Positions 19,917-63,800 of a stretch of 64,000 nucleotides of DNA are shown here, piece after piece (within the stretch, counting starts at the first letter, position 1; the number at the start of each line of letters is the position of its first letter). The notes below the pieces were generated by a model. It was given only the letters and a program-made list of their open reading frames with translations. It was not told where the DNA came from and ran no database searches. Source of the stretch: Candidatus Yanofskybacteria bacterium (GTDB taxonomy: Bacteria > Patescibacteriota > Minisyncoccia > 2-02-FULL-40-12 > IGHO2-01-FULL-4-A); assembly GCA_016185545.1 (NCBI GenBank), contig JACPNJ010000005.1, positions 271,717 through 335,716 of the forward strand, given 5' to 3'. The position numbers and the translations under genes were made by a program.

Positions 19917-19927
19917 ATCCACTGGTA

Positions 19928-26291: not shown

Positions 26292-26597
26292 CTAGATTAA
26301 ATAATTTCGTAATTGCTTTTTTAGATAAGTACGGCCAGAACCACTTTTCAAAAACTTCTCTCGACCTACTGCATCACGTCTATCAAGATAGGCTTCAGCG
26401 TAAATAAGTTTCCATTCGCCACTCTTTATTCTTGTGGTACGACCGCCTTGTTTAATATTATGCTCCTCGATACGCCGTTTTAAGTTATCGGTTTGCCCGA
26501 TATACCAAGATTTATCATTTTGATTTTCTAAAAGGTAGACGGTAAACATAAAATTGGCCCCGAAAAGTTCACTTCGTTCACCTCGGGGCTCACTCAA
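26292..26597 (-). CDS. GIY-YIG nuclease family protein (UPF0213-like)
   Basis: FTVYLL...WYIGQTDNLKRRIEEHN GIY-YIG core. Confidence 0.7.
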   Translation of the reverse strand: MSEPRGERSELFGANFMFTVYLLENQNDKSWYIGQTDNLKRRIEEHNIKQGGRTTRIKSGEWKLIYAEAYLDRRDAVGREKFLKSGSGRTYLKKQLRNYLI

Positions 26598-26650
26598 AAT
26601 AACGTTCTCGGCTCGCCACGAGATGAGCGAGCCTGCGAGCGAATTTTTCG

Positions 26651-26724
26651 TGGCTGCCGGGCTTGGATTCGAACCAAGATGATGTGATTCAGAGTCACAT
26701 ATCCTACCGTTAGATGACCCGGCA
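26651..26724 (-). tRNA. tRNA-Gln (CUG)
   Basis: Cloverleaf: acceptor UGCCGGG/CCCGGCA, D AUCU/GGAU, anticodon stem UGUGA/UCACA with loop CUCUGAA, T CUUGG/CCAAG with UUCGAAU; CCA encoded. Confidence 0.7.
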
Positions 26725-28508: not shown

Positions 28509-28559
28509 AAGCTATAAAGCTATAAAGTTATAAAGTTATAAAGCGGATGCTTTAAAATT
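28509..28559. repeat. Octamer tandem repeat spacer (gctataaa)2(gttataaa)2 between prfB and ftsE
   Basis: Seen directly in sequence. Confidence 0.85.
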
Positions 28560-34946: not shown

Positions 34947-36764
34947 TTATTTTTTTAGCATTTCCAAAAATACCTTCTGTGGTATTTCCACTTTACCCCG
35001 CTCCTTCATTTTAGCTTTCCCGCGTTTTTGTTTTTCTAGCAACTTCTTTTTGCGGGTCACATCGCCGCCATACAGGTAACCCGTAACATCTTTGCGCAAA
35101 GCGGGTATGGTTTCTCGGGCAATGATTTTACCTCCGATAGCCGCCTGTAAAGATACCGCAAACCATTGCCGCGGCAATATCTTTTTCAATTTTTCAACAA
35201 TCCGCCTGCCTTCATGATATGTCCGCTCGCGCGGCACAATTTTGGAAAACGGCTCAACTTTTTCCTCGGCGACTAAAATATCCAGCCGTACCAAATCATA
35301 AACTTGATAACGAGCCGGCTCATAGCTCATGGAGGCGTAGCCGGAACTGACACTTTTGAGCCGGTCGTAAAAGTCTGTAATTATTTCTGACAATGGCACA
35401 AGGTACTTCAATATCGCCACCTCCTTGCTTAAATAATCGGTCGATCTATACTGGCTCCGCAATTCCGACAAAAGTTTCATTAATTGTCCCATGTACGATA
35501 CTGGGCTTAAAATTTCCAAATCAACCATCGGCTCTTCTATACTCTCTATTATGCCGGGGTCGGGTAGAGCGGCGGCTGAACGCACCTTTAGAACCTCACT
35601 TTTTTTTGTAGCAACATGATATTCCACAGATGGTGTGGAAACAATAAGAGCAAGGCCGAATTCACGACGCAAACGTTCGCTGACTATTTCAATATGCAAC
35701 ATGCCGAGAAATCCCAGACGAAAACCGCGCCCTAACGCCGGCGAAGATTCGGGTTCATAAACCAGCGAAGCATCGGTAAGCTTCAATTTGCCAAGTGCGT
35801 CTTTAAGTACGTCGTAATCATCGCTAGATTCAGGATAAAAACTGGCAAACACCATAGGTTTTGGCTCTTGATAACCGGATAGAGGTTTTAAAATTTCATT
35901 TTGAGATTTGAGATTTGAGATTTGAGATTTAAATATCGTATCGCCGACTCTAATTTGCCCGGGATCTTTTAGACCCGTAGCAATATAACCAATCTCACCG
36001 GCAGACAACATCGATTCCTTTTTAAGTTGCGGCGCAAAATAGCCGACTTCCACAACATCAGAAGTGGCCCTTGAGGCAAATAACTTAATTTTCTCTCCCG
36101 CTTTTATGGAACCGCCGAAAACTCTGACAAAAGCAATAACACCCTTATAAATATCAAAGGCTGAGTCAAAAATCAGAGCACGAAATGATGAGGGTTTAGG
36201 GTCTAGGGTATAGGGTATAGACGGCGTAATTTTGGCAATTACTGCTTCAAGAACTTGTTCCACTCCTTCGCCGGTTTTGGCGGAAATTTTTAAAATATCC
36301 TCGCGCGGCATGGTTAATAAATTTACCAGTTCTTCCTCCGCTTCGGCGACTCGCGCATTCGGCAAATCAATTTTGTTAATCACTGGAATAATTGCCAGCC
36401 CTTGTTTCTGCGCCAAATGTAAATTCGCCAGTGTCTGCGCCTGCACGCCCTTAGTCGCATCCACCAACAAAATCACTCCCTCAACAGCGGCAAGTGAACG
36501 GGAAACTTCATAAGAGAAATCCACATGACCCGGAGTATCAATAAGATTAAGCGTGTAACGGTTGGCATTTAGGGCGTAGGACATTCTAACAGGCTGGAGT
36601 TTAATGGTAATCCCCCGCTCGCGTTCCAGTTCCATCTGGTCTAAAAACTGCTCGTGCATCTTCCGTTTCTCAACCGTTCCAGTTAATTCCAAAAACCTGT
36701 CGGCTAAAGTTGACTTGCCGTGATCAATGTGGGCAACGATACAGAAATTGCGGATATTTTGCAT
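34947..36764 (-). CDS. lepA: Elongation factor 4
   Basis: AHIDHGKSTL G1 motif, DTPGH, NKID, LepA C-terminal domain. Contains in-frame tandem-heptamer stretches. Confidence 0.9.
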   Translation of the reverse strand: MQNIRNFCIVAHIDHGKSTLADRFLELTGTVEKRKMHEQFLDQMELERERGITIKLQPVRMSYALNANRYTLNLIDTPGHVDFSYEVSRSLAAVEGVILLVDATKGVQAQTLANLHLAQKQGLAIIPVINKIDLPNARVAEAEEELVNLLTMPREDILKISAKTGEGVEQVLEAVIAKITPSIPYTLDPKPSSFRALIFDSAFDIYKGVIAFVRVFGGSIKAGEKIKLFASRATSDVVEVGYFAPQLKKESMLSAGEIGYIATGLKDPGQIRVGDTIFKSQISNLKSQNEILKPLSGYQEPKPMVFASFYPESSDDYDVLKDALGKLKLTDASLVYEPESSPALGRGFRLGFLGMLHIEIVSERLRREFGLALIVSTPSVEYHVATKKSEVLKVRSAAALPDPGIIESIEEPMVDLEILSPVSYMGQLMKLLSELRSQYRSTDYLSKEVAILKYLVPLSEIITDFYDRLKSVSSGYASMSYEPARYQVYDLVRLDILVAEEKVEPFSKIVPRERTYHEGRRIVEKLKKILPRQWFAVSLQAAIGGKIIARETIPALRKDVTGYLYGGDVTRKKKLLEKQKRGKAKMKERGKVEIPQKVFLEMLKK

Positions 36765-36797
36765 AAACCACAAAACCTGCCTCTCGAAAGGCAGGTT

Positions 36798-41480: not shown

Positions 41481-41586
41481 CCCGTTAGAAGTGGCAATAG
41501 CGACATATAAACTAAACTTACAATCGCTGTTTTAACTTTTATTAAATAAAATTTGATTCGCGAACCCGTTAGGGCTACTTCTAACG
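41481..41586 (-). promoter_or_regulatory. CCCGTTAG leader element abutting the GT4 start codon
   Basis: cccgttagaagtggc at the ATG; distal aacccgttagggctacttctaacg. Confidence 0.6.
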
Positions 41587-41664
41587 AAATTCGTTGCTCA
41601 AAGCGTACCAAATTTATAAGCAAAAACAAAACCGGTTTACTGACTGACGAAATATTAATATTTA

Positions 41665-43086: not shown

Positions 43087-43121
43087 GCCACTAAAAATCG
43101 CGTGTTGCGCGATTTTTAGTG

Positions 43122-43670
43122 GCTTGGTAAATCTATAAGCCGAATTCTGTCACCCTTCGCTCGGCTATGCCGAGCTTCGGACGGACAAGTATTTGTGCTT
43201 GTCCTCCGTAGCTTTAGCGTAGGATGGATGATTATTTATCTGGGCCAATTATCGCTAATTAGCTCTAGCGTACGAACTTTTCGGGGTATCGCATTGCTGT
43301 GATACGACGCTGTACTTGCACTAGGCAGGGTTTAGCGCGACACCCATGTTGCCATGGGGCGTTCCCGTTCGGGAACTTTTCACCCGCAGTCCTCGGACTT
43401 GCGCCAAAGGAGCTCGGAATAGTTTCTGTGCCACTTTCCCTAAGCTTCGATTAGTAGCTCTTCTCTTAAGAGGAAGAAGTACCAACCTTATACTCGGTGG
43501 CCGTTAGCCACTGCCTTGCTGACGCAATCACTAATCACTAACCTCCAATCACCAATTTTGTTAGTAATTGACGACTAGCAGTTGGTGATTGCGTCAGCGG
43601 TGTTCGGACTTTCCTCTACCTTGCTCTTTCCAAAGAAAGGGCTGGGCAGAAATCACCCGATTTACCAAGC
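43122..43670 (-). ncRNA. rnpB: RNase P RNA (bacterial), unusually long (~550 nt)
   Basis: P1 pairing GCUUGGUAAAUC / GAUUUACCAAGC. P4 strands GAGGAAAGUCCGAACACC and ACAGAAUUCGGCUUA. GGGUGAAAAG J11/12-like segment. Long extra helix at 43500-43605. Confidence 0.7.
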
Positions 43671-46367: not shown

Positions 46368-46515
46368 CCCGTTAGAAGTAGCTGCTTGCCCCGCAATTCG
46401 CCAGAGGCGATGGTTCGGGGCTGCGCAGTTTTACACACAAGTTGCGGCCGCACAACAAGCTTAAGATTATTTACAAATTATATTTGCAAACCCGTTAGGG
46501 CTACTTCTAACGGGA
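46368..46515 (-). promoter_or_regulatory. CCCGTTAG leader element filling the tpiA-pgk spacer, abutting the pgk start codon
   Basis: cccgttagaagtagc at the ATG. Distal cccgttagggctacttctaacggga can pair either locally or with the ATG-proximal copy (15-bp perfect). Inner hairpin gccccg...cggggc. Confidence 0.6.
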
Positions 46516-46519
46516 TTAA

Positions 46520-48970: not shown

Positions 48971-49031
48971 TAGTCACTAGCCACTAGCCACTAGCCACTA
49001 GTAATTTAACTAGTCGCTAGGCACTAGTCCG
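48971..49031. repeat. Heptamer-arm spacer element (cactagc)n
   Basis: cactagtcactagccactagccactagccactag + taatttaa + ctagtcgctaggcactagtccgctaggcac. Confidence 0.85.
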
Positions 49032-50585: not shown

Positions 50586-50672
50586 CCATTCAGGTTATAG
50601 GTTATAGATTATAGGTTATAGCATTCTTCCATTATTTTTAACTATCACCTGTCACCTATTAGCTATCACCTC
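50586..50672. repeat. Heptamer-arm spacer element (ggttata)n ... (ctatcacc)n between map and adk
   Basis: caggttataggttatagattataggttatagc + loop + ctatcacctgtcacctattagctatcacc. Confidence 0.85.
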
Positions 50673-51341: not shown

Positions 51342-51413
51342 GCTACCTGAATTTTATCACAAAATTTTTAAAAACCAAAAACCGGCCTAACGCCGGTTTT
51401 TGTAATTTTAGAT

Positions 51414-52673: not shown

Positions 52674-52786
52674 TAAAATTTTAGCTTAAAATTCAAAACT
52701 CAAATTTCAAATTTTTATTGAAACTTAAAATCTAGATTTTAAAATGATTTGAGTTTTGAATTTTAGATTCCATTTAAAATTTGTGA
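52674..52786. repeat. AT-rich inverted-repeat spacer (aaattcaaaactcaaat ... atttgagttttgaattt); related copy at 57942-58064
   Basis: 18-bp near-perfect IR arms separated by ~40 nt. Confidence 0.85.
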
Positions 52787-53248
52787 TTACTCAATGGCTC
52801 CACCAGCTTTTAGTACTTTCTCCCTTGCTGACTTAGAAAATTTAAAACCTGAAAAACTAAGCTTCTTTGTTAATTCTCCATCACCCAAAATTTTTACGCC
52901 ATTTTTAGAATTTTTTATAATGCCTAACTTAACCAAAACTTTAGGTTCAACCCTGTTGCCATCTTTAAAATTAGAATTCACAGTATTAAGATCAATAATT
53001 ACTGGCTTATTGTACTTAACCTGAAATGCCCGATGTTTAATGTCAACTTTCTTGGTTGCGCCACGCTGTTTCGGAAAAAGTTTCCAAATTGGGTTGTCGC
53101 CGCCGCGAAAACCCGGCCGTATTCTAGCGCCGGCACGAGACTTCTGGCCCTTTGAGCCATGGCCTGAGTAGGTGCCACGCTTGCCACCCCGACCTACCCG
53201 CTTTCGTTTTTTATTTTTAGTTGTGTATTTTAGTTGGTGAAGCTGCAT
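52787..53248 (-). CDS. rplO: 50S ribosomal protein L15
   Basis: RVGRGG...GHGSKGQKSRAG motif. Confidence 0.9.
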   Translation of the reverse strand: MQLHQLKYTTKNKKRKRVGRGGKRGTYSGHGSKGQKSRAGARIRPGFRGGDNPIWKLFPKQRGATKKVDIKHRAFQVKYNKPVIIDLNTVNSNFKDGNRVEPKVLVKLGIIKNSKNGVKILGDGELTKKLSFSGFKFSKSAREKVLKAGGAIE

Positions 53249-53313
53249 TATTCAGGTTACAGGTTACAGGTTACAGGTTCAAAAAATTAAACCTAGCACC
53301 TGACACCTGACAC
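53249..53313. repeat. Heptamer-arm palindromic spacer element (caggtta)n ... (cctgaca)n, copy A
   Basis: (caggtta)3 + ttcaaaaaattaaacc + tagcacctgacacctgacacctag. Near-identical to 57614-57692. Confidence 0.9.
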
Positions 53314-53820
53314 CTAGTTTTTGAGCTTGCTCAACGCTCCTATCGTTGCTCTTGCTATATTTATCTTATTTCCGGTTCTTTTTATAAGCTTTGCGGAAAT
53401 ATTTTCAATACCAGAAAGTTTAGCCACTACACGTACCGCTCCTCCAGCCTTAACTCCGTTGCCAACTGGCGCGGGCTTAAGTAAAACCACCGCGCTGCCG
53501 TATTTATATTCAATTATGTGTGGTATTGTGCCGTTTTTTATCGGCACTGTGACCATGTTTTTACGTGCTTGATGTGTCGCTTTTTGCATTGACTGAGCCA
53601 CGTCATGACCTTGAGCAACTCCAACTCCTACCCTGCCCTTACCATCACCTATAGCAATAGTGGCACGGAAACTGAATCGCTTGCCACCCTTGGTTACACG
53701 AGTTACCCTAGCAATATCCAAAACTTTGGAATCAAATTCCGATTTTTCTTTGGGTGTCCCCCGATCTCTGCCGAAGCCTCTTCTGCCTCCGGTTTTTTTA
53801 TTATTTTTTTGTTCCTCCAT
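53314..53820 (-). CDS. rpsE: 30S ribosomal protein S5
   Basis: S5 dsRBD plus C-terminal domain. Confidence 0.9.
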   Translation of the reverse strand: MEEQKNNKKTGGRRGFGRDRGTPKEKSEFDSKVLDIARVTRVTKGGKRFSFRATIAIGDGKGRVGVGVAQGHDVAQSMQKATHQARKNMVTVPIKNGTIPHIIEYKYGSAVVLLKPAPVGNGVKAGGAVRVVAKLSGIENISAKLIKRTGNKINIARATIGALSKLKN

Positions 53821-54026
53821 GCCAGTTTGTCCAAACGCAGCGTTAACGAGTATTGGCTAACAAACTGCGCACCCCGCTCTTTCTAATCACTAATCGAGAT
53901 AAATAAAGTAGAAACTTTACCGATAGGCATTTATTACTTAATCTCGAATATCAATCAGAAAGAGCGGGGTTAAGTATTTTTTACTATGCTCGGCTCGCAA
54001 TAGCTCGCCTGCGCGTGGAAAAATAC
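53821..54026. repeat. GC-capped long inverted repeat spacer (accccgctctttc ... gaaagagcggggt) with the atgctcggctcgc...ctcgcctgcgcgtgga tail
   Basis: IR arms ~30 nt; tail motif shared with 55139-55170. Confidence 0.85.
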
Positions 54027-54398
54027 TTAAAATTTTAGTCCTCCCCTTCTTAATCCTTCCGCCAATGCTCTTATTCTCCCGTGATATTTGTAGCCCCCCC
54101 TATCAAATACGACCTTGCTTATCCTCATGTCTTTGGCTTTTTTTGCCAACGTTTCTCCGATTAAATCAGCTCTTGCGGTTTTACTTTCTTTTTTTATTTT
54201 AGTTCCGCTTTTCATACTATTTTTTACTTTCAGGATATCACTGGCACTTATCAGTGTTTTTCCGGTCGCATCATCAATTATCTGAACAAAAACGTGACGA
54301 CTACTGCGAAAAACCGAAACTCGCGGAGTCTCTTTTGTTCCACGCACTTTTGCCCTAACACGGTTATGTCTTTTTTCTCTGTGTTGCTTTTTATTCAT
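54027..54398 (-). CDS. rplR: 50S ribosomal protein L18
   Basis: L18 family; C-terminal RIRALAEG. Confidence 0.9.
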   Translation of the reverse strand: MNKKQHREKRHNRVRAKVRGTKETPRVSVFRSSRHVFVQIIDDATGKTLISASDILKVKNSMKSGTKIKKESKTARADLIGETLAKKAKDMRISKVVFDRGGYKYHGRIRALAEGLRRGGLKF

Positions 54399-54470
54399 GC
54401 TAAAGTTTCTAGTTTCTAGTTTTTAGTTTCTAGTGAATTTTACTAGCAACTAGAACCTAGAACCTAGCAA
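54399..54470. repeat. Heptamer-arm spacer element (tagtttc)4 ... (ctagaac)n
   Basis: Tandem 7-mers followed by an imperfectly complementary tandem arm; loop gtgaatttta. Confidence 0.9.
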
Positions 54471-55025
54471 CTATCCTGCCGTTGCTACCGCCTTCTTGCC
54501 CGCCTTTCTTAAAATAACTTCGTTCTTGTATTTAATGCCGGAACCCTTATACGGTTCCGGCGGTTTAGCCGCCCTTATTAAAGCCGCGACATGACCGACT
54601 TTTTCTTTATCCGGTCCAGTTACTTTTATAACATTTTTCTCCACCCGGAAAGTCACTCCTTCAGGCGCTTTTACCGAAACTGGATTGGTATAACCCAGAC
54701 TTAATTCAATGGAATCTTCCTTTACTTGAGCCTTGAAACCCACTCCATTAAACTCCAGTACCTTTTCAAAACCGCCAAAAACACCCTTTATCATTGTTGC
54801 CGCCAGCGCCCTGCCCAATCCCCAAAATTTAGAAGTTTCTTTGCTGGCATCAATGCCTTGTTTTAATCCAATAACAACGGCACCATCTTCCACTCTGGCA
54901 ATTAAAACATCCGGAAGAATTTTTTCCAGTTCGCCCTTGGGACCCTTGGCGTGAATTTTTTGACCGTCAATTTCCACTTCCACACCATCCGGAATTTTGA
55001 TTAGTTTTTTACCTATTCTAGACAT
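54471..55025 (-). CDS. rplF: 50S ribosomal protein L6
   Basis: MSRIGKKLIKIP; two L6 repeats. Confidence 0.9.
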   Translation of the reverse strand: MSRIGKKLIKIPDGVEVEIDGQKIHAKGPKGELEKILPDVLIARVEDGAVVIGLKQGIDASKETSKFWGLGRALAATMIKGVFGGFEKVLEFNGVGFKAQVKEDSIELSLGYTNPVSVKAPEGVTFRVEKNVIKVTGPDKEKVGHVAALIRAAKPPEPYKGSGIKYKNEVILRKAGKKAVATAG

Positions 55026-55179
55026 GCAAATTTGTCCAATCGGACAAGCGTAATCGCGTAGTCCGATTGGGTAACAGATTTAGCACCCCGCCCTCTAAGC
55101 ACTTTAATAGCTTAGAGGGCGGGGTAACTAACTGTTACCATGCTCGGCTCGCTTTGCTCGCCTGCGCGTGGACAGCTAT
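55026..55179. repeat. GC-rich multi-hairpin spacer element, copy 1 (paralog at 59432-59583)
   Basis: ccaatcggac..gtccgattgg; accccgccctctaagc...gcttagagggcggggt; ggtaactaactgttacc; atgctcggctcgc tail. Confidence 0.9.
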
Positions 55180-55578
55180 TTACCAAACCTCAAAAAGCAC
55201 CTCTCCTCCCAGTTCGGCTTTCCTTGCATCTTCGCCCGCCATTATCCCCTTGGATGTTGAAATCACAGAAATACCATAACCATTTTTCACGGGTTTTAAA
55301 TCTTTTTTACCGGCATACATTCTTCGCGATGGTTTTGAAACCAACTTAATTCCCTTGATTGCGCCTACACCGTTATCATATTTTAATTCAATTGCCAGCA
55401 TATTAAATTCGGATTTTTTGGTTTTTATTTTTCTCTTGTCAACACCGGCGATAAATCCTTTGGTTTTTAAAATTCCGGCAATTTCAAATTTAATTTTTGA
55501 AAAAGGTGAAACTATCTCGCTTTTACCGCGAGCCTGCGCATTTTTTATTTGGGTCAGCATGTTTGCGATTGGACTCAA
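55180..55578 (-). CDS. rpsH: 30S ribosomal protein S8
   Basis: DPIADMLTQIKNA-like N-terminus. Confidence 0.9.
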   Translation of the reverse strand: MSPIANMLTQIKNAQARGKSEIVSPFSKIKFEIAGILKTKGFIAGVDKRKIKTKKSEFNMLAIELKYDNGVGAIKGIKLVSKPSRRMYAGKKDLKPVKNGYGISVISTSKGIMAGEDARKAELGGEVLFEVW

Positions 55579-55687
55579 GTTAGTTTATCAAGTTTATAAA
55601 GTTTTAAAGTTTACAAAGTTAGATTCTGAATAACTTTACAAACTTTATGAACTTTATGAACTTTATGAACTTTTTACTGGTCGTGGT
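55579..55687. repeat. Heptamer-arm spacer element (aagttta)n ... (gaacttt(at))n
   Basis: caagtttataaagttttaaagtttacaaagtt ... aactttacaaactttatgaactttatgaactttatgaacttt. Confidence 0.9.
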
Positions 55688-55873
55688 TTACCACGAACTT
55701 TTATGTATTCCGGGCAGTAATCCTTGGCTAGCCAGCTCTCTGAAATGCACCCGGCACAAACCGAATTTCCTGATATAGCCGTGCTTGCGCCCGCACATAA
55801 AACAGCGGTTTACGATTCTGCTTGAAAACTTGGGCTTCTTATTTGATCTTGCGATTGTGGATTTTTTCGGCAT
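55688..55873 (-). CDS. rpsN: 30S ribosomal protein S14 (Zn-type)
   Basis: 61-aa form with CxxC...C..H; start set to MPKKST. Confidence 0.8.
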
Positions 55874-55946
55874 GCCAATTTTCTCAACGAGGCAAGCGTA
55901 TGCTCGCGACGCCGAGTTGTTAGAAAGCTTGAGCACCCCGCTGCAT

Positions 55947-56534
55947 TTAAAGGTTCCGCTTAATTGGAAACCCCGTCAATCTCAATAACTCCACGCCTTC
56001 TTCCTTAGATTTAGCCGTCGTTACCACTGTAACTTCCAAAGGAAATATGTCCTTCAGCGATTCATATGTAACTTCCGGAAAAATCGTCTGTTCTTTGATA
56101 CCGATGTTAATATTTCCGTGCTGGTCAAACACCTTCTGTTCCAAACCATGGAAATCCCGCGAACGCGGCAAAGCTATTGAAATTAACCTATCTATAAAAT
56201 CATACATTCGCCTTCCGCGCAAGGTCACCACCATTCCAACATCCAGTCCTTGGCGCACCTTAAAACCGGAAATTGATTGTTTCGCTTTGCGCATCGCGGC
56301 TTTTTGGCCGGTTATTTTAGCCAAGTCCTGCTCAATTTTTTCAATTGCTTTTGTCTCCTTGGCCACCGCCTTGCGCCCATAGCCGACATTAACCACGACT
56401 TTCTCAATCTTCGGCACCGCCATCACATTCTTGTAACCGAACTTAGCCTTCATCAAGGGTAGTACTTCTTTACGATACTTTTCTAATAATCTAGGTTGTT
56501 GTGTTTTCATTTTCATAAAAGGATCCCGCCCCAT
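55947..56534 (-). CDS. rplE: 50S ribosomal protein L5
   Basis: L5 family; true start probably a few codons downstream (MKMKTQQ). Confidence 0.9.
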
Positions 56535-56756
56535 CCGGGGTCATGGCTTCCTTGGCAATTTGGTTTTAACAAAACTCGCCTTCGGCTTTGATTTTATTTT
56601 GTCTAAAACTCTGCTACCAGAAGGGGCGGGATTGCGCTTGTTACCAGTGCTCGCCTCGCCATGCTCGGCTCCGCCCTGACAAGCTTACCTCTTTTCGGTA
56701 TTTAGTTAGTAATCTTGGTGTATTTAACATAATTAAATACTAGCAAAGCTAGTTTG
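56535..56756. repeat. GC-rich hairpin spacer (cccgcccc...ggggcggg) with atgctcggctc motif
   Basis: ggatcccgccccatccggggtc...gaaggggcgggattgcg; ccatgctcggctccgccc. Confidence 0.8.
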
Positions 56757-57062
56757 CTAGTTTTCTGATCCACATTTTTTGCATATTCTCTCTTTATTAT
56801 CTCCAACAATCTTATGCCCCACTCTTGTCGGCTTCCCGCAACTCTTGCATACTAACATAACTTTTGACGCATCCACCGCCCGCTCTTTATGAATTATCTG
56901 CCCCTTCTGCCCTTGCTTTCTGGCCCGCAAATGCCTGGCAACGGTATTCAATTTTTCAACCACAATTTTACCTTCGCGCGGAAAAACAAACAAAACCTTA
57001 CCCGTCTTGCCCCGGTCTTTACCGTTCAACATCACCACGTTGTCGCCTTTTTTGATGTTCAT
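56757..57062 (-). CDS. rplX: 50S ribosomal protein L24 with C-terminal CxxC...CxxC zinc-ribbon extension
   Basis: KOW motif IKKGDNVVMLNGKDRGKTGKV; C-terminus CKSCGK...CKKCG. Confidence 0.85.
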   Translation of the reverse strand: MNIKKGDNVVMLNGKDRGKTGKVLFVFPREGKIVVEKLNTVARHLRARKQGQKGQIIHKERAVDASKVMLVCKSCGKPTRVGHKIVGDNKERICKKCGSEN

Positions 57063-57241
57063 TTCTTATAAATTAAGTTTGAACTTTGTAAATTTTTCTT
57101 TTCTGGGCGAGCAGGAACAAATATTATCAAATTTCTGAAGTTTTTCGCTGATGGGAATCCACTATTGGAGCACATCTAGAAAAACGAGAAAATTTGATAA
57201 ATATTTGTAAGCGAGAACAAACAAAGAAAAATTTACAAAGT
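57063..57241. repeat. Nested perfect inverted repeats in the rplX-rplN spacer
   Basis: gtttgaactttgtaaattttt ... aaaaatttacaaagttcaaac (21 bp) enclosing atattatcaaatttc ... gaaaatttgataaatat. Confidence 0.85.
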
Positions 57242-57613
57242 TCAAACGATCTCTTGCGCCAAACTTGCAATGGTGTCAAATCCTCTTTCTTTTATTTCTC
57301 TGGGTATCGGCCCGAAAATTCTGCCGCCCTTAGGTTCCTTGCTAGTACCCTCTAATATCACTACTGCATTATCGTCAAATCTGACATAACTTCCATCTTT
57401 TCTTCTGAAATTATTCCTCTGGCGGACAATCACGGCCCTGAGTACATCTTTCTTTTTGACTTGTTTGCGCGGTTCGGTTTCTTTGACGGATATTACGATA
57501 ATATCGCCAAGCTGGCCGTATCTATGCCTCGTTCCGCCCAAAACCTGAATCACGCCAACCTTTTTGGCTCCACTATTATCAGCAACATTTAAAATTGAAC
57601 GCAGTTGAATCAC
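57242..57613 (-). CDS. rplN: 50S ribosomal protein L14
   Basis: MIQ..S.L.VADNSGAK. Confidence 0.9.
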   Translation of the reverse strand: MIQLRSILNVADNSGAKKVGVIQVLGGTRHRYGQLGDIIVISVKETEPRKQVKKKDVLRAVIVRQRNNFRRKDGSYVRFDDNAVVILEGTSKEPKGGRIFGPIPREIKERGFDTIASLAQEIV

Positions 57614-57692
57614 TTAATCAGGTTACAGGTTACAGGTTACAGGTTACAGGTTAAAAAATTAAACCTAGCACCTGACACCCGAAACCTGACAC
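57614..57692. repeat. Heptamer-arm palindromic spacer element, copy B
   Basis: (caggtta)4 + taaaaaattaaacc + tagcacctgacacccgaaacctgacacc. Confidence 0.9.
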
Positions 57693-57941
57693 CTATACTT
57701 TTCCTATGATTTGCCATCTCTTGTCTTTCGACATCGGCTTTGTTTCCCGAATAACAACTTTATCCCCAATATGATACTCCCCCTTCTCATCATGCGCCTT
57801 AAATCGTTTGGTAATTTTGTAATATTTCTTGTATTTTGGGTGCTTCTTTAATCTTATAACCGAAACCACCACAGTTTTGGTCATTTTGTCCGACACTACG
57901 ATTCCCTTTAATTGTCTTATCTTTTTGATCAATTGTTTCAT
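57693..57941 (-). CDS. rpsQ: 30S ribosomal protein S17
   Basis: S17 OB fold; GIVVSDKMTKT. Confidence 0.9.
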   Translation of the reverse strand: MKQLIKKIRQLKGIVVSDKMTKTVVVSVIRLKKHPKYKKYYKITKRFKAHDEKGEYHIGDKVVIRETKPMSKDKRWQIIGKV

Positions 57942-58064
57942 GGCTTATTAAATTCAAAACTCAAATTTTAAATTTTAATTGAAATTTCGAATTCAAAATA
58001 TAAAATAACATTTTAATTTTAAGTTTGCGGTTTCATTTGATTTTTTGAATTTTGTAATTTGAAT
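57942..58064. repeat. Second copy of the aaattcaaaactcaaat spacer family
   Basis: ttaaattcaaaactcaaatttt ... ttgattttttgaattttgtaatttgaat. Confidence 0.8.
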
Positions 58065-58274
58065 CTATTTATTTTTGGGTTTCGCGATTCGTGCTTCAAT
58101 CTTAATTGCTGTTAAAATTCTCGCTATGTCTTTTTTGGTTTTTTTAATTTGGCTCACATCTTTCACTGACTTATTTGCCAGCTCAAATCTCAATTTCCCC
58201 AGCTTAATCTGCAACTCCTTAAGCATTTCGTTTAATTCAACTTGGGATTTAGATTGTATATCGCTAAATTTCAT
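58065..58274 (-). CDS. rpmC: 50S ribosomal protein L29
   Basis: 69 aa coiled-coil; ELNEMLKELQ. Confidence 0.85.
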   Translation of the reverse strand: MKFSDIQSKSQVELNEMLKELQIKLGKLRFELANKSVKDVSQIKKTKKDIARILTAIKIEARIAKPKNK

Positions 58275-58303
58275 AAGCTGTAAAGCTATGGATCCGGAAA
58301 GTT

Positions 58304-58711
58304 TTATAGCTTTTTAATAAATCTGGTCTTAATCGGCAATTTGTGCGCCGCCAATCTTAATGCCTCCATAGCCGTTTTTTCGGTAACGCCATCCATCTCA
58401 AATAATATCCTGCCCGCTTCAACCGGTGCCACAAAATGAGATAACGATCCGGCACCACCGCCCATTCCGACTTCCGCGCCCTTTTGCGTCCGTGGTTTAT
58501 CGGGGAACACTCTTATCCATATCTTGCCACCGCGCTGAATGAAGTGGGTAATTGCTCGCCGTGCCGCTTCCAGCTGATTGGCCTTAAGCCAGCTTGATTC
58601 CATTGCCTTAAGACCGTAACTGCCAAAGCTCAAATAATACCCGCGCGTTGTGGTTTTTTTCAACGTTCCCTTGTGAACCTTGCGGTGTTTTATGCGTTTG
58701 GGCTGTAGCAA
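58304..58711 (-). CDS. rplP: 50S ribosomal protein L16
   Basis: MLQPKRIKHRK. Confidence 0.9.
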   Translation of the reverse strand: MLQPKRIKHRKVHKGTLKKTTTRGYYLSFGSYGLKAMESSWLKANQLEAARRAITHFIQRGGKIWIRVFPDKPRTQKGAEVGMGGGAGSLSHFVAPVEAGRILFEMDGVTEKTAMEALRLAAHKLPIKTRFIKKL

Positions 58712-58798
58712 ACTAGCTGATAGCTGATAGCTGATAGCTGATAGCTTTTTGAAGTCAAGCTATAACCCATCACCTAAAAACTATAACCTTTGCGATTG
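58712..58798. repeat. Heptamer-arm spacer element (tagctga)4 ...
   Basis: ctagctgatagctgatagctgatagctgatagc + loop + gctataacc...ctataacc. Confidence 0.85.
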
Positions 58799-59431
58799 TT
58801 AAAATCGCAAACCTTTATATATCCATACCTTAATTCCTACCGTTCCGTATGTCGTGTATGCGGTTGATTTTGCAAAATCTATGTCCGCCCTCAGTGTCTG
58901 CAACGGCAAGCTTCCTTGTTCAAGATGCTCCGTTCTCGCTATGTCATTGCCGTCCAGCCGTCCACCAACTGTAACTTTAGCGCCTTTTACATCACGGTTG
59001 GATATGATTTTAGCAAGTGATTGCTTTAACACGCGACGGTAAGGTAATCTTTTTTCTATCTGCTCAGCCATTTGTTCAGCAACTATTCTGGCTGAAGTTT
59101 CCGGATTTTTAAACTCCTGTATATCCAACCGAATCGCTGTTTTTCTCTTAATAAGTTTGATAACTTCGGCTTTTAAATCTTCGATGCCCGTACCGCCGCG
59201 GCCTATAATCAAACCCGGCCTTGCGGTGCGTATGGTAATGGCTAGAACATCCGGACTTCTTTCAATCTCTATATCATCTACACTCATGTTTTTGAGTTTT
59301 TTATCTAGAAATTTTCTGATTTCAACATCTTCTTTTAAAAATTCCGGATAATTTCTAACCTTAAACCAGCGGGATTTCCAATCCTTGTTTATCGAAACTC
59401 TTAATGATGTTGGGGAAATTTTCTGTCCCAT
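58799..59431 (-). CDS. rpsC: 30S ribosomal protein S3
   Basis: MGQKISPTSLR; KH domain. Confidence 0.9.
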   Translation of the reverse strand: MGQKISPTSLRVSINKDWKSRWFKVRNYPEFLKEDVEIRKFLDKKLKNMSVDDIEIERSPDVLAITIRTARPGLIIGRGGTGIEDLKAEVIKLIKRKTAIRLDIQEFKNPETSARIVAEQMAEQIEKRLPYRRVLKQSLAKIISNRDVKGAKVTVGGRLDGNDIARTEHLEQGSLPLQTLRADIDFAKSTAYTTYGTVGIKVWIYKGLRF

Positions 59432-59583
59432 GCAAATTTGTCCAATCGGACAAGCGTAATCGCGTAGTCCGATTGGGTAACAGATTTAGCACCCCGCCCT
59501 CTATGCACTTTAATAGCTTAGAGGGCGGGGTAACTAACTGTTACCGTACTCGTTCGCGTTGCTCACTGCGCTCGGACATTTAA
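59432..59583. repeat. GC-rich multi-hairpin spacer element, copy 2
   Basis: ~110 nt nearly identical to 55026-55135 (caaatttgtccaatcggacaagcgtaatcgcgtagtccgattgggtaacagatttagcaccccgccctct...). Confidence 0.9.
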
Positions 59584-60102
59584 TTAGATGGCTTTTCTTC
59601 TAAAAAACTTTTTTATCTTGCCTACCTGTCCGAATATTCCTCCCTTTTTGCCTAGTTCTTTTTTGATTTCCGGTTTTGATTTAGTTGGCATATTAACTTC
59701 TTTTGTTGTTTCGGTTATTTCTGCCGTTTCGGATTTTGGTATTATTTGTGATTTGGCTTTCAGACCGGGTACTTTTTCCTCCAACACAATCTTGATATGC
59801 GATGTCTTTTTCTCTATTGGTGAAGCCATGCCAAATCCTTTTGGCCTAAACCTTTTTAGTTTGGACCCTTCATTGACTATCACATCCTTAATAAACATAT
59901 TTTCCTTAACAAGGCCAAAACCATTATGCGCGTTAGCCATGGCCGAATCAAGCAATTTAGAAATAGGTTTGCTGGATTTTTTTATGATATAATCCAACTG
60001 GAACTTAGCCGAAATCGCGTCCATGCCCTTAATTGCACGCGCCACCAACCTAACCTTGCGCGGCGATATTCTTAGATTGTTTAATTGGGCTGTTATCTGC
60101 AC
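59584..60102 (-). CDS. rplV: 50S ribosomal protein L22 with C-terminal extension
   Basis: L22 core ARAIKGMD... plus a ~50-aa K/E-rich tail. Confidence 0.85.
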   Translation of the reverse strand: MQITAQLNNLRISPRKVRLVARAIKGMDAISAKFQLDYIIKKSSKPISKLLDSAMANAHNGFGLVKENMFIKDVIVNEGSKLKRFRPKGFGMASPIEKKTSHIKIVLEEKVPGLKAKSQIIPKSETAEITETTKEVNMPTKSKPEIKKELGKKGGIFGQVGKIKKFFRRKAI

Positions 60103-60173
60103 TTATTCAGGTTACAGGTTACAGGTTACAGGTTACAGTTTTTAACTGTCCACTGATCACTGGAAACTGGTCA
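60103..60173. repeat. Heptamer-arm spacer element sharing the (caggtta)3 left arm with a different right arm
   Basis: caggttacaggttacaggttacagtttttaactgtccactgatcactggaaactggtcac. Confidence 0.85.
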
Positions 60174-60512
60174 CTACTTTTTCTCTGGTTCCGCCTTTGC
60201 CGCTTGTGCCGCTTCAATCTCTTTTTGTTTGGCTGCGGCTTCTATTTCTTTTTGCATTCGTCCGCCGTGACGACTGAATCTTCTCGTCGGTGAAAACTCT
60301 CCCAACTTATGCCCAACCATATCTTCCGTCACAAAAACCGGTAAATGCGTCTTTCCATTATGCACCCCGAAAGTAAATCCGACCATTTGCGGTGTTATTG
60401 TTGATGCCCGCGCCCATGTCTTAATAATCGTTTTATCTCCAACCCTAAGCCGGCCGAGTTTTTTCAGCAACTTTTCATCCACATATACGCCTTTTTTAAT
60501 TGATCTGCTCAT
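60174..60512 (-). CDS. rpsS: 30S ribosomal protein S19 with C-terminal extension
   Basis: S19 core [11 protein letters not shown]; EIEAA repeat tail. Confidence 0.9.
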
Positions 60513-60514
60513 GT

Positions 60515-61342
60515 TTATTTCTTTCTTCTTCGTACTATAAATTTACTTGATTTCTTTTTCTTGTTACGAGTTTTGACGCCAAGCGCAGGTTTGCCCCAAG
60601 GGGTTTTGGGGTGCGGCATACCAATGGGTTGTCTGCCTTCGCCGCCGCCGTGCGGATGGTCAACCGGATTCATAGCCGTTCCGCGCACCTTCGGCCGCCT
60701 TCCAAGATACCTTGCCCTGCCCGCCTTACCAAGCACAATTGAACTGTGCTCTGCATTTGACAACTGGCCGATTGACGCCATTACCTCACCGTGAAACCTA
60801 CGCACTTCAGAAGAAGGCATAACCACTTGCACATACTCACCCTCATGCGCCAATACCGTTGCTCCGCCGCCAGCCGATCTGACTGCTTGGCCGCCCCTGC
60901 CCGGCTGCAGTTCAATATTATGAATGATCGCGCCTTGTGGGATATTTTTAAGTTTCATCCGATTTCCCGGTTCTAACGCTGTTTTATCGGCAACAGTTAT
61001 GTTTCCGCCAGCTCTCAATCCTTCCGGAGCCAATATATATCTCTTATCCCCGTCAGCATAATGCAGCCGCGCGATCCTGACGGTGCGATTGGGATCGTAT
61101 TCAATTGAAAAAACTTTCGCTGGAACATTTATCTTATTCTGCTTGAAATCAATGATACGATACAACCGCTTAACCCCAGCTCCTCGGTGACGCGAAGTAA
61201 CTCTGCCTTGATTATTTCTGCCAACAGCACGACGAAAACCGGCCGTTAATGATTTTAACGGTTCCACGCGCGACAAATTAGAAAAATCATATCCCACCAT
61301 TTGTCTGCGCCCGGGGGTTGTAGGCTTATATATTTTGGACAT
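60515..61342 (-). CDS. rplB: 50S ribosomal protein L2
   Basis: L2 signatures [16 protein letters not shown]; HPHGGGEG. Confidence 0.95.
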
Positions 61343-61451
61343 AATTTAAAATGTAAACATCAAAGTGTAAAATTCTAGTATTCATTCGGGACAATTTTTT
61401 TAATTTTAAATTTTATATTGTCATTTTGCATTTTGATTTTTGAATTTTACA

Positions 61452-61850
61452 TTATTGAACAATATCTATCTTACTTCCCTCCTTCAACGTAACTATCGCT
61501 TTCTTAAATCCCGGCTTTCTTCCTTCATGTCTGCCAACCTGCCTGTGTTTTGACGGCATATGCAAGACGCGGACTTCGGCAACTTCTACCTTGTATAAAT
61601 TGCCGACAGCTTTCTTGATGTCGATTTTATTAGCATTTTCGGTAACCTTAAAAATATATTTATTCTGTTCACCCAAAACTGTTCCTTTTTCAGAAATGTG
61701 CGGCGACAAAACTACCCGATAAGAATGAGCGTCACCGCCCTTGGGCAAAGACGCCCCAGCCGGAAGCTCCGCACTTTCTTCCTTCTTTGGGATTTCTTTT
61801 TCTTTGTCAGCCACTTCTTTTTCTTTTATTTTTCGCTTAAATAAAGCCAT
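61452..61850 (-). CDS. rplW: 50S ribosomal protein L23 with N-terminal extension
   Basis: L23 core in the C-terminal 95 aa. Confidence 0.85.
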   Translation of the reverse strand: MALFKRKIKEKEVADKEKEIPKKEESAELPAGASLPKGGDAHSYRVVLSPHISEKGTVLGEQNKYIFKVTENANKIDIKKAVGNLYKVEVAEVRVLHMPSKHRQVGRHEGRKPGFKKAIVTLKEGSKIDIVQ

Positions 61851-61923
61851 GGTCAGTTTCTAGTTTACAGCTTACAGTTTACAGTGAATTCTTAACTGAA
61901 AACTGACAACTGTAAACTGAAAA
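61851..61923. repeat. Heptamer-arm spacer element (tttacag)n ... (ctgNaaa)n
   Basis: gtttctagtttacagcttacagtttacagtgaattcttaactgaaaactgacaactgtaaactgaaaac. Confidence 0.9.
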
Positions 61924-62583
61924 CTATAATCGAAAGGTTCTTTCGATTATAGGCACCGCATCTTTTAACAAAATCAGATATTTCTTTGTTAGCACATCTT
62001 TGATATTCAAACTATTCGCCGACGTTATTTCTATAAACGACAAATTATTTACCGCCCGCGCAATGTTTTTATCTTGGGCTGGAGCCACAAGCAAAATAGA
62101 GTTTTTTTTCTTTTTTGTCTCTCTGTAACCATCCAGTTTGGACGATAACATCTTGATTGAATTATTGGCAGCTTTTGTTTTGGGAGTTTCAAACCGTAAT
62201 TCGTCCAAAACAAGCAGTTCTTTATCATTTGCCTTACTGGATAGAGCCATAAATAAAGCCTTGCGCTTCATTTTTTTATTGATTTTCTTCTCAAAATTTC
62301 TTTCCTTGGTCGGTCCGAATGCCACACCCCCGTGTCTCCATATTGGCGAACGTATTGAGGCGTGCCTAGCCCGACCAGTTCCCTTCTGCCGCCATGGCTT
62401 CCGACCGCCACCACGCACCTCGCTACGATCCTTGGCGTGAGCAATCACCTGCCTTGAATTAGCCGCCTGCGCGTCAATCACTTGTTTAACTAATTCGGCG
62501 TTCATTGCCACACCAAAAATTTTGTCTGGCAAATCAACATCGCCAATTATTTCGCCTGATTGATTGAAAAGTTTTGTTTTCAC
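61924..62583 (-). CDS. rplD: 50S ribosomal protein L4
   Basis: L4 family; PWRQKGTGRAR. Confidence 0.9.
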   Translation of the reverse strand: MKTKLFNQSGEIIGDVDLPDKIFGVAMNAELVKQVIDAQAANSRQVIAHAKDRSEVRGGGRKPWRQKGTGRARHASIRSPIWRHGGVAFGPTKERNFEKKINKKMKRKALFMALSSKANDKELLVLDELRFETPKTKAANNSIKMLSSKLDGYRETKKKKNSILLVAPAQDKNIARAVNNLSFIEITSANSLNIKDVLTKKYLILLKDAVPIIERTFRL

Positions 62584-62607
62584 TTTTTATAATTTAAAAT
62601 TTATAAT

Positions 62608-63207
62608 TTATAATTTTTGAATTTCTAATAATGTTCCTCTCCTCCCCGGTAGCGCTCCCTTAACTGCCAACAAATTATTTTCTTTATCAATGTTCACGAT
62701 TTTTAATCCTCTCGCGGTTATTCGCTTGCCACCCATGCGGCCGGGCATTCGCATTCCTTTTAATGTGTGCTGTGGAAACCGCTGGCCGATTGAACCGCCG
62801 TGTCGCAAAACATGATGATGACCGTGGCTGGCGGGCATACCGTGAAATCCGTGTCTTTTAACAACACCCTGGAAACCCTTGCCCTTTGAAACTCCAGAAA
62901 CTTTAATAACATCACCGACATTAAAAACTGAAACATCTAACTCGTCACCCCTCTTTTTGCCACCAAGCGTCTTGGTTTCTTTTAATGTTTTAAGCGGCTT
63001 CAAATCTTTCAAGTGCCCGGACTTGGGCTTGTTGGGCTTCTTTTCTTTGCCAAAACCGACTTGCACCGCCTCATAGCCGTCTTTTCCCTTGGTTTTTATT
63101 TGCGTCACCGTAACAGGCCCGGCCTCAATTAAAGTTACCGGCGTAACCACTCCGTCTTCGTTGAAAATCTGGGTCATTCCAATTTTTTTGCCTAATAAGA
63201 ACGCCAT
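62608..63207 (-). CDS. rplC: 50S ribosomal protein L3
   Basis: L3 family; GKGFQGVVKRHGF. Confidence 0.9.
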   Translation of the reverse strand: MAFLLGKKIGMTQIFNEDGVVTPVTLIEAGPVTVTQIKTKGKDGYEAVQVGFGKEKKPNKPKSGHLKDLKPLKTLKETKTLGGKKRGDELDVSVFNVGDVIKVSGVSKGKGFQGVVKRHGFHGMPASHGHHHVLRHGGSIGQRFPQHTLKGMRMPGRMGGKRITARGLKIVNIDKENNLLAVKGALPGRRGTLLEIQKL

Positions 63208-63377
63208 TGTAACAAAAAACCGGACTTAGCCGGCACATTTAAAATACCAACTAAATCAAAAGGATAGCTTAGGTTTTATTAAAAATTAAAACCATTTATT
63301 ATATTATTCTGTTGCTCTCACAGAGATAAGAGTAACAAAGATGGCTGTACAAATTTTGCACAGTCATCTTTGTTTCC

Positions 63378-63713: not shown

Positions 63714-63756
63714 AATATAATGAGCTAAAGAACAGATTTCGTTTTATGGACTAAAC

Positions 63757-63800
63757 GAGCCCCTCCCCAGTTTGTGTCACAAACTGGGGAGGGGCTCGTC
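63757..63800 (-). terminator. Hairpin between tuf and rpsJ
   Basis: cgagcccctccccagtttgtgtcacaaactggggaggggctcg, a perfect 17-bp stem. Confidence 0.5.

Follow-up and report, generated by a model that had tools for sequence, protein, structure and literature searches.

The S10-spc cluster of ribosomal-protein (r-protein) genes is a textbook case of a compact, translationally coupled operon. Here, we describe this cluster in a 64-kb stretch of DNA from a Candidatus Yanofskybacteria bacterium, a member of the Patescibacteria (contig JACPNJ010000005.1; the whole stretch is referred to as the window), in which most of the gaps between a stop codon and the next start codon hold small self-complementary repeat elements. 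In one group of these elements, the arms of the palindrome are short tandem arrays, mostly of 7-nt units.

Gene order and junction lengths

All genes in the region of the cluster lie on the minus strand. Identification with NCBIfam gives the order tuf (3´ end), S10-L3-L4-L23-L2-S19-L22-S3-L16-L29-S17-L14-L24-L5-S14(type Z)-S8-L6-L18-S5-L15-secY-adk-map, and L30 is absent from the cluster annotated in this way. A preliminary description of the window had put almost every junction at 60–220 nt. This holds, with a range of 65–240 nt, for 17 of the 20 junctions scored, but not for L2/S19 (2 nt), L3/L4 (24 nt) and L16/L29 (29 nt). The open reading frames (ORFs) of S14 and L5 start later than the longest ORF implies, resulting in spacers of 73 nt at L5/S14 and approximately 240 nt at L24/L5, and the true start of L5 is probably located 18–24 nt further downstream.

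Hairpins with tandem-unit arms

Spacers were folded as sense RNA and compared with 200 dinucleotide shuffles each (z-score). A significant hairpin with arms made of tandem units is found at six junctions, five with a period of 7 and one with a period of 9 (z from -3.4 to -5.8; Table 1). At a seventh, S19/L22, the array is kept and the pairing is lost. The preliminary description, which saw the same architecture at every junction, was thus too broad, because 6–7 of the 20 junctions fit the tandem-unit design and the rest hold at least three other types of element. Its list of heptamers is recovered in place by Tandem Repeats Finder (TRF), with CAGGTTA in 3.9–5.0 copies at 53253, 57619 and 60108, AGTTTCT at 54404, TAGCTGA in 4.7 copies at 58714, CAGTTTA at 61854 and TTTATAA at 62586, except that the spacer credited with “aagttta” (55579–55687) has a period of 9 with the unit AAGTTCATA. 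Similarly, the bulged hairpins that it predicted for the mRNA are supported by the sense folds of most spacers but not by those of S19/L22, L29/S17, L23/L2 and L5/S14, which are not significant against shuffles.

The periodicity is sharp. In the heptamer spacers, self-identity at a lag of 7 nt is 0.60–0.71 compared with 0.13–0.35 at neighbouring lags, and the left and right arms are 73–84% complementary. The typical fold resembles a ladder in which helices of 5–6 bp alternate with internal loops of 1x1 or 2x2 nucleotides. In the TAACCTG family, the two arms are separate tandem arrays, GTGTCAG and TAACCTG, with units that are complementary at five of seven positions, and the internal loops consist of G.A plus U.U. 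The arrays are placed close to the codons that they separate: the best array ends 0–6 nt before the start codon in eight of nine window spacers, and in several copies the TAG stop codon lies within the first heptamer (CTAGGTG). In the S19/L22 spacer, the 5´ arm still has a period of 7 and its complementarity is gone, and from its sequence we take this spacer to be a decayed copy.

The units are related

Brought into one phase, six units of the window read CTGTAAC, CTGTAAA, CTAGAAA, CTATAAC, CTATCAG and CTAGTGG. CTGTAAC, CTGTAAA and CTATAAC are a single substitution apart and the units overall are 1–2 substitutions apart. Their mean rotation-minimised Hamming distance is 2.67, compared with 3.54 when random heptamers of equal composition are used (P=0.004). 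When ten hairpins are aligned, AG in the 5´ arm and CT in the 3´ arm recur without exception at a spacing of 7 nt, such that all hairpins share an invariant YAG...CTR register. The hairpins at L6/L18 and L4/L23 have the loop AATTCAC in common, and the last unit of the L4/L23 array is CTAGAAA, the unit of L6/L18. Across the 161 sequences described below, TAG or CTA occurs in 37% of the period-7 units compared with 23% expected (P<0.0005). Judging from these similarities, the pattern of a different unit in the same architecture is best read as one superfamily that diversifies through mutation of the unit and homogenisation of the array.

Copies within the cluster and turnover among relatives

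Several spacers of the window are copies of each other. S8/L6 and L22/S3 are 99% identical over 114 nt and differ in the 5´ 40 nt, which makes them mosaic. The S17/L14 spacer has one unit more per arm than S5/L15, to which it is 98% identical over 55 nt, and L15/secY and L29/S17 are 94% identical over 35 nt.

For comparison, 21 genes were located in 160 related loci and every junction was measured; the neighbours of the window are all metagenome-assembled genomes (MAGs) of the Patescibacteria/Parcubacteria type. Expansion of spacers and use of Shine-Dalgarno (SD) sites were compared over 125 loci, and periodicity was counted over 161 sequences. The nearest relatives by S3 identity are L001 (a MAG; 84%), L081 (84%) and L082 (Hainich groundwater; 82%), and the r-proteins of L001 are 60–92% identical to those of the window. 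The same families occur in these genomes at other junctions. The S3/L16 spacer of L082 matches the L4/L23 hairpin of the window over 64 nt (94% identity). The 179-nt element at L14/L24 (Table 1) has homologues at L2/S19 in L001 (85% identity over 144 nt) and at L16/L29 in L082. The period-9 element at S14/S8 is orthologous to the one at S14/S8 in L001, where the family is found at seven junctions.

Junctions that are filled in one genome are empty in another. L22/S3 measures 152 nt in the window, 2 nt in L001 and 4 nt in L003; S8/L6 measures 154 nt in the window and 9 nt in both L001 and L003; and the operon of L003 is compact at all junctions. L6/L18 (72 nt) and L24/L5 (222 nt) are reduced to 11 nt and 3 nt in L001, and conversely L2/S19 (2 nt) and L16/L29 (29 nt) extend to 560 nt and 594 nt in that genome. 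At the S3/L16 junction, four different elements are found among five related genomes, with L001, L082 and L002 differing from the window. In L081, the S3/L16 array is orthologous to that of the window but reads (AGCTATA)5 instead of (AGCTATC)4.7, a change of unit throughout the array that is expected from contraction followed by re-expansion out of a mutated unit. The C-termini of the upstream proteins are conserved right to the stop codon in filled and empty junctions, and the elements are therefore placed exactly between stop and start.

The inserts at L16/L29 in L001 (9818–10411), L081 (2179–2961) and L082 (1646–2364) measure 590–790 nt and contain an antisense ORF for a small hydrophobic protein of 80–122 aa with the shared motif C..C...WP..E[FL]YD[FI]VH, together with a bidirectional terminator-like hairpin.

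The majority of the relatives have compact operons with a median spacer of 2–20 nt. In about a dozen of the 125 loci, more than 75% of the junctions measure at least 40 nt. These expanded operons include the window (84%), L018, L011, L106, L028, L156, L008/L095 and L121/L126; L008 and L095 are practically one sequence, and L121 and L126 are separate assemblies that are 99.3% identical and have identical hairpins. In a neighbour-joining tree of S3, L16 and L14, expanded genomes are scattered over at least eight separate clades and are often sister to compact ones, as seen from the fraction of expanded junctions in the pairs L048 (0.60) and L055 (0.08), L028 (0.93) and L092 (0.21), and L020 (0.75) and L127 (0.05). 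Periodic spacers number 116 of 802 in the complete set, compared with 7 of 802 after shuffling, and 84 of them have period 7, 15 period 9 and 12 period 8. At least one is found in 53 of 135 loci, and the window has the highest number, 12. Period 7 also dominates the TRF arrays in 1.25 Mb of related sequence (185 arrays, compared with 76 of period 9, 57 of period 8 and 42 of period 6).

Heptamer arrays outside the r-protein spacers

Hairpins of the same design are found at the adk/map junction, between a glycosyltransferase gene and galT, and in RNase P RNA (Table 1). The RNase P RNA gene (43120–43668, minus strand) is 549 nt long, compared with 367 positions in the model, and has a 137-nt insertion at approximately model positions 87–100 that contains the hairpin. 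The lepA gene (34947–36773, minus strand) has two in-frame heptamer arrays, one at 36191–36220 encoding SIPYTLDPKP and one at 35900–35930 encoding KSQISNLKSQ. We take the latter to extend a loop of LepA by approximately seven residues relative to the E. coli protein. Paired arrays are located in non-coding DNA in 44 of 48 cases, and the in-frame arrays in lepA are exceptions. The arrays in lepA and RNase P RNA suggest that heptamer slippage is a general mutational habit of the genome rather than a property of r-protein junctions.

Another array, at 28509–28559 downstream of a peptide-chain release factor gene, lacks a hairpin. It has a period of 8 (AAAGCTAT, 4.6 copies), reaches the TTG start codon of ftsE and has no complementary arm.

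Other elements in the long junctions

The long junctions outside the heptamer set hold a GC-rich class of approximately 150 nt (class B), a 179-nt palindrome and AT-rich palindromes (Table 1). The spacers at L22/S3, S8/L6, L18/S5, L24/L5 and L14/L24 are structured without being built from heptamers, and the two of them that were compared with shuffles, both of class B, have z-scores of -8.1 and -9.4.

Table 1. Spacer elements and array hairpins in the window, with fold stability as z-score
Feature	Positions	Strand	Description	z
L15/secY spacer	52674–52786	-	AT-rich palindrome, 19-nt perfect arms AAAATTCAAAACTCAAAT	-3.8
S5/L15 spacer	53249–53313	-	Period-7 hairpin; arms (GTGTCAG)n (5´) and (TAACCTG)x3.9 (3´) around a loop, the latter arm reaching to 4 nt from ATG; 5-bp helices and 2x2 loops	-5.8
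L18/S5 spacer	53821–54026	-	Class-B 5´ module (CCACGCGCAGGCGAGC..GCGAGCCGAGCA) with a different long central hairpin	
L6/L18 spacer	54399–54470	-	Period-7 hairpin, unit CTAGAAA, loop AAAATTCAC	-3.4
S8/L6 spacer	55026–55179	-	Class B, GC-rich palindrome of approximately 150 nt ending ...GGACAAATTTGC directly before ATG	-9.4
S14/S8 spacer	55579–55687	-	Period-9 hairpin, unit AAGTTCATA (TRF), not a heptamer	-5.2
L24/L5 spacer	56535–56756	-	GC-rich, related to class B	
L14/L24 spacer	57063–57241	-	179-nt MITE-like palindrome (MITE, miniature inverted-repeat transposable element), outer stem GTTTGAACTTTGTAAATTTTTCTTT and its complement	
S17/L14 spacer	57614–57692	-	S5/L15 family with one more unit per arm, (TAACCTG)x5	-4.9
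L29/S17 spacer	57942–58064	-	AT-rich relative of the L15/secY element, weakly structured	-1.4 (not significant)
S3/L16 spacer	58712–58798	-	Period-7 hairpin, perfect 3´ arm (AGCTATC)x4.7	-4.2
L22/S3 spacer	59432–59583	-	Second copy of class B, 5´ 40 nt diverged from the S8/L6 copy	-8.1
S19/L22 spacer	60103–60173	-	Perfect (TAACCTG)x4.4 adjoining the start codon, not structured	-0.87
L23/L2 spacer	61343–61451	-	AT-rich, period-7 repeats of TTTTAAA type (TRF), hairpin not significant	-0.27
L4/L23 spacer	61851–61923	-	Period-7 hairpin, unit CTGTAAA, loop AAGAATTCAC	-5.6
L3/L4 spacer	62584–62607	-	24 nt, AT-rich, periodicity of TTTATAA type (TRF); too short for a hairpin	
adk/map spacer hairpin	50586–50672	-	Period 7, unit CTATAAC	-3.1
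Glycosyltransferase gene/galT spacer hairpin	48971–49031	-	Period 7, unit CTAGTGG	-3.2
RNase P RNA hairpin	43500–43590	-	Period 7 (TRF 43525–43556), within the 137-nt insertion	-3.9

A further repeat spans whole spacers elsewhere in the window. This inverted repeat, CCCGTTAGAAGTAG ... CTACTTCTAACGGG, is found at 46368–46519, 41481–41664 and 19797–19927 as well as in distantly related Patescibacteria (L001 5750–5823, L049 473–785 and L050 6460–6595). At its 3´ end, it directly adjoins the ATG of the following gene, and its ends are conserved with a variable interior. It has no match in viral contigs, and scans of viral contigs found neither the core of the 179-nt element nor the CCCGTTAGAAG...CTTCTAACGGG element.

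A stand-alone GIY-YIG nuclease-domain protein of 101 aa is encoded at 26292–26597 (minus strand), adjoining tRNA-Gln. The region upstream of its gene (26598–26660) contains the 10-mer GCGAGCCGAG, which has exact matches in the class-B spacers (at 53989 and 55143); allowing one mismatch gives 7 matches, compared with 2.25 expected. The protein is the sole nuclease-like candidate for a mobilising gene among the window ORFs scanned. We rejected this assignment because the 10-nt motif shared with class B is too thin a basis for it.

Strand symmetry, geometry and expression signals

A comparison of fold energies between the strands, in which RNA-specific selection was sought, gave no signal. Among the 116 periodic spacers, the sense strand folds more stably in 57 and the antisense strand in 56 (Wilcoxon p=0.91), and a smaller set agrees. 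It follows that G-U pairs are not favoured over A-C mismatches. For the stems of 80 strong hairpins, the median distance is 3 nt from the stop codon at one end and 6 nt to the start codon at the other, and 89% of the spacer is covered. The hairpin spans nearly the whole spacer, and the folded mRNA would therefore leave the stop and start codons adjacent. The same geometry results automatically when a palindrome is put into a gap of 0–10 nt. Stable structure is not confined to periodic spacers, as 45% of the non-periodic long spacers of the surveyed operons have z<-3.

An SD-like motif is found upstream of 6 of the 75 window genes, and start codons follow A/T-rich sequence. The proportion of r-protein genes with such a motif is 0–25% in nearly all of the 125 related loci, compared with 95% in a Clostridia control. 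Since the clade hardly uses SD sites, the insertions destroy no ribosome-binding site. SD usage and spacer expansion are uncorrelated over the 125 loci (rho -0.13).

No T-runs are found after the periodic hairpins. Terminator-like sites, consisting of a GC stem and a T-run, occur only after secY (51376–51402) and in the S10/L3 spacer before L3, and promoter-like sites are at chance level (26 compared with 27.2 expected). In Rfam 15, the spacers match no family at gathering or permissive thresholds, and tRNAs and RNase P alone pass. Sub-threshold matches are to generic hairpin (microRNA) models, and the same applies to a perfect 22-bp inverted repeat between tuf and S10 (63755–63799), which has no clear T-run. 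The S10/L3 spacer (63208–63377) measures 100–500 nt in most relatives, including those that are otherwise compact, and in the window its terminator-like hairpin (63219–63257) is placed at its end, just before L3. This spacer may be a conserved regulatory leader that is located after S10 rather than before it.

Discussion

The repeats in the S10-spc cluster of the window are genuine and far beyond chance, and the preliminary description overstated their scope and interpretation. We consider it probable (approximately 0.6) that the long spacers are stop/start junctions invaded by several small palindromic families, similar to repetitive extragenic palindromic (REP) sequences and MITEs, that one of these has heptamer-array arms maintained by slippage, and that the insertions are tolerated. 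According to this model, non-autonomous, self-complementary repeats would colonise the few bases that separate a stop codon from the next start codon. One superfamily would have arms of short tandem arrays, mostly with 7-nt and sometimes with 8–9-nt units. The arrays may grow, shrink and homogenise through replication slippage, with the same bias towards heptanucleotides as in other bacteria, and the units would diversify by point mutation followed by homogenisation of the whole array. Transposition or gene conversion, presumably involving an enzyme, may carry copies around the operon and from junction to junction. A palindrome entering a spacer of 0–10 nt would form a bulged hairpin that takes up approximately 90% of the enlarged spacer and has the stop and start codons side by side at its base. 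Such inserts may be nearly neutral for translation and be tolerated because they fold on themselves and because the clade does not rely on SD sites.

The comparison with relatives, in which the same families turn up at other junctions, are present or absent and change their unit, points to copied elements with rapid turnover rather than to a fixed regulatory code. The preliminary description had interpreted the difference between units as evidence of a generative mechanism rather than of one amplified sequence. This is not supported, as the units are connected in a mutational network and copies within the window are 98–99% identical. Its suggestion of generation by slippage agrees with the heptamer arrays in lepA and RNase P RNA and with the exchange of unit relative to L081, but not the independence of units that went with it. 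An RNA structural code, also proposed there, is at odds with the equal stability of the two strands and with the compact operons of sister genomes.

Several observations weigh against invasion by tolerated elements. First, periodic spacers are approximately threefold enriched at r-protein junctions (90 of 476 spacers of at least 40 nt, compared with 26 of 392 at other co-directional junctions, p=7e-8), a figure that is biased because the loci were sampled around r-protein operons. Second, arrays of TRF quality favour the start-codon side (75 compared with 43, p=0.004). Third, members of a family keep one orientation relative to transcription, an effect that is inseparable from replication because the two appear to be co-directional here. 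Fourth, seven of the eight differences that separate the window from L001 in the outer stem of the 179-nt element are compensated; templated repair from arm to arm could also explain this. Other points concern the mechanism. The absence of any change in array length between L121 and L126 implies that slippage is not extremely fast. Each family has 1–3 copies in 64 kb, confined to the operon or next to it, and local gene conversion could have taken the place of true transposition. Of the window ORFs scanned with Pfam and NCBIfam, none was identified as a gene for a transposase, a REP-associated tyrosine transposase (RAYT) or another mobilising protein. Finally, when filled and empty junctions were compared, the flanks consisted of the stop and start codons only and no target-site duplication was recognised.

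Some of these observations would suit hairpins that are selected as elements of the polycistronic mRNA, acting as stabilisers, as RNase processing sites or as loop-out modules for re-initiation or translational coupling. In the loop-out version, terminating ribosomes would melt the base of the stem and the start-proximal array would act like the TAACTGA repeats of Beggiatoaceae (see below). The strong structures, the stems that reach from just after the stop codon to just before the start codon, the enrichment at r-protein junctions, the better arrays on the start side and the compensated stem changes are all consistent with selection. So are the preference of periodic spacers for co-directional junctions (49 of 579, compared with 5 of 179 that are convergent or divergent, p=0.008), the repeated emergence in at least eight clades, the structure found in non-periodic long spacers, and the setting in an SD-poor clade, given the translational role proposed for heptamer repeats at start codons (PMC4679880). 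However, G-U pairs are not preferred and the sense strand is no more stable than the antisense strand, sister genomes cope with spacers of 0–10 nt, close relatives hold unrelated elements or none at the same junction, and the unpaired copy at 60103–60173 persists. Moreover, the geometry is automatic, the compensated changes can result from templated repair and the enrichment is affected by sampling. We regard selection at the level of RNA as possible but doubtful.

One intriguing, if tentative and rather unlikely, possibility is that the hairpins with co-evolving tandem-array arms in a YAG/CTR register constitute a distinct element of the Patescibacteria. They could be self-propagating palindromes that prefer the stop/start junctions of highly expressed operons, or a selected intercistronic loop-out module that sets re-initiation or mRNA processing where initiation is not based on SD sites. 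The start-side bias, the enrichment at r-protein junctions and the emergence in several clades are compatible with this.

It is improbable that each hairpin was born in situ by local slippage and fold-back (template-switch) copying of an array, with no mobile element involved. Heptamer arrays do form within genes, both in coding DNA and in RNase P RNA, both arms are independent arrays with a consensus unit of their own, a whole array has changed its unit between orthologues, and the scanned ORFs of the window include no transposase. Against this, near-identical copies, including loops and flanks, are found at different junctions of the window, other genomes have members of the same families at junctions that are not orthologous, and the non-periodic class B and the 179-nt palindrome behave alike.

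Very little speaks for intrinsic terminators or attenuators, or for internal promoters that split the cluster into many transcription units: the elements are intergenic stem-loops and some AT-rich spacers contain promoter-like hexamers, but the periodic hairpins lack a T-run, canonical terminators are located elsewhere and promoter-like sites do not exceed expectation. Assembly artefacts, a concern of the preliminary description, can be practically dismissed, as the arrays of 28–35 nt fit within a single read, elements that are orthologous or related are present in MAGs and metagenome contigs assembled independently (L001, L081 and L082), the different assemblies L121 and L126 agree, and periodic spacers occur in so many of the loci.

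In several lineages of Patescibacteria, nearly every junction of the S10-spc cluster can take up 60–220 nt of self-folding repeat DNA. This has a bearing on how translational initiation and coupling operate in SD-poor bacteria, or whether they can be dispensed with. The set of filled and empty junctions provides natural material for studies of how palindromic repeats originate, become homogenised and turn over in very small genomes. There is also a practical side, as structured spacers, arrays in lepA and the 137-nt insertion in RNase P RNA can mislead the annotation and the choice of phylogenomic markers in pipelines for MAGs of the Candidate Phyla Radiation. If the hairpins are functional, they would represent a new class of intercistronic RNA element.

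Comparison with known systems

As the preliminary description had supposed, these elements appear to be undescribed: we found no description of them in Patescibacteria or in S10-spc operons in the literature. Heptanucleotide repeats as such are the most frequent long simple repeats in prokaryotes (Mrazek et al. 2007, summarised in PMC4679880). Like contiguous heptanucleotide repeats of the long simple sequence repeat (LSSR) or short tandemly repeated repetitive (STRR) type, the arrays of the window have 7-nt units in 3–5 copies, are mostly intergenic and occur above chance. A close parallel is seen in Beggiatoaceae, Cyanobacteria and Bacteroidetes, which are SD-poor and have TAACTGA arrays immediately before start codons, also within r-protein operons (PMC4679880). 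Of the 170 sets in the Beggiatoa genome, 169 are direct repeats and one is inverted (PMC4679880). Nostoc also has heptamer arrays close to start codons, for which a role in regulation has been suggested (bioRxiv 10.1101/2022.06.06.494920). The window arrays are likewise direct and in forward orientation, end a few bases before a start codon that has no SD site, lie within r-protein operons of an SD-poor genome and have a patchy distribution. The unit TAACCTG(A) is one base from TAACTGA, and the TTTTGAA unit reported from Nostoc is present in AT-rich spacers of the window (TRF 58043–58064). TAACTGA itself is not among the units of the window, which are TAACCTG, CTGTAAA, CTAGAAA, CTATCAG, CTATAAC and CTAGTGG. 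Related heptamers are rarely repeated in the TAACTGA systems, in contrast to the many related units in this patescibacterial host, and in the window the arrays are paired and partly complementary, such that a hairpin fills the entire intercistronic gap.

Arrays of (TAACCTG)3 or longer were also found in 22 IMG/VR contigs (L161–L182) with a GC content of 0.29–0.68, often beside other heptamer arrays, and in one of them (L178) the array is part of an arm-loop-arm hairpin like those of the window. The varied composition of these contigs indicates that the TAACCTG unit is not specific to the patescibacterial clade, and L178 indicates that the design is not exclusive to it. The literature on repeats in Patescibacteria also includes tandem interspaced guide RNA (TIGR) arrays (PMC12045711). 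These arrays, which we take to have units of approximately 36 nt with variable spacers beside a tas gene, were set aside as unlike the identical 7-nt units found here between r-protein genes.

Among palindromic repeats, the REP/BIME/REPIN sequences of Proteobacteria (PMC2817692, PMC8266576) are similar in being short, imperfect extragenic palindromes that also occur inside operons, and the window elements are likewise multi-copy, lineage-specific and form stem-loops in polycistronic mRNA. They differ in their arms of tandem 7–9-nt units and in having no conserved head of the GTAG type and no RAYT (TnpA-REP, a Y1 HUH transposase) among the scanned ORFs. REP/REPIN sequences typically number tens to hundreds per genome, and the 64 kb of the window contain 1–3 copies per family. 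MITEs were represented in the comparison by Correia (Neisseria), ERIC/IRU (enterobacteria), RUP/BOX (pneumococcus) and RPE (Rickettsia) (PMC10969869, PMC2229807). Like these, the window elements are non-coding sequences of 60–220 nt with inverted ends that form long hairpins between co-transcribed genes, are variably present in close relatives and have copies at non-orthologous sites; like RPEs, they also occur within an RNA gene and coding sequence. The resemblance is best for the 179-nt element and class B, both of which have the size (50–500 nt) and terminal inverted repeats of MITEs. No target-site duplication or parent insertion sequence was recognised in our comparison. Unlike in MITEs, the outer stems of the 179-nt element co-vary instead of being conserved as transposase-binding ends, and the heptamer-arm hairpins have no terminal repeats distinct from their arrays. 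Heptanucleotide repeats and REP/MITE-like palindromes are thus known already. What appears to be new here is their combination in Patescibacteria, as hairpins with paired heptamer arrays.

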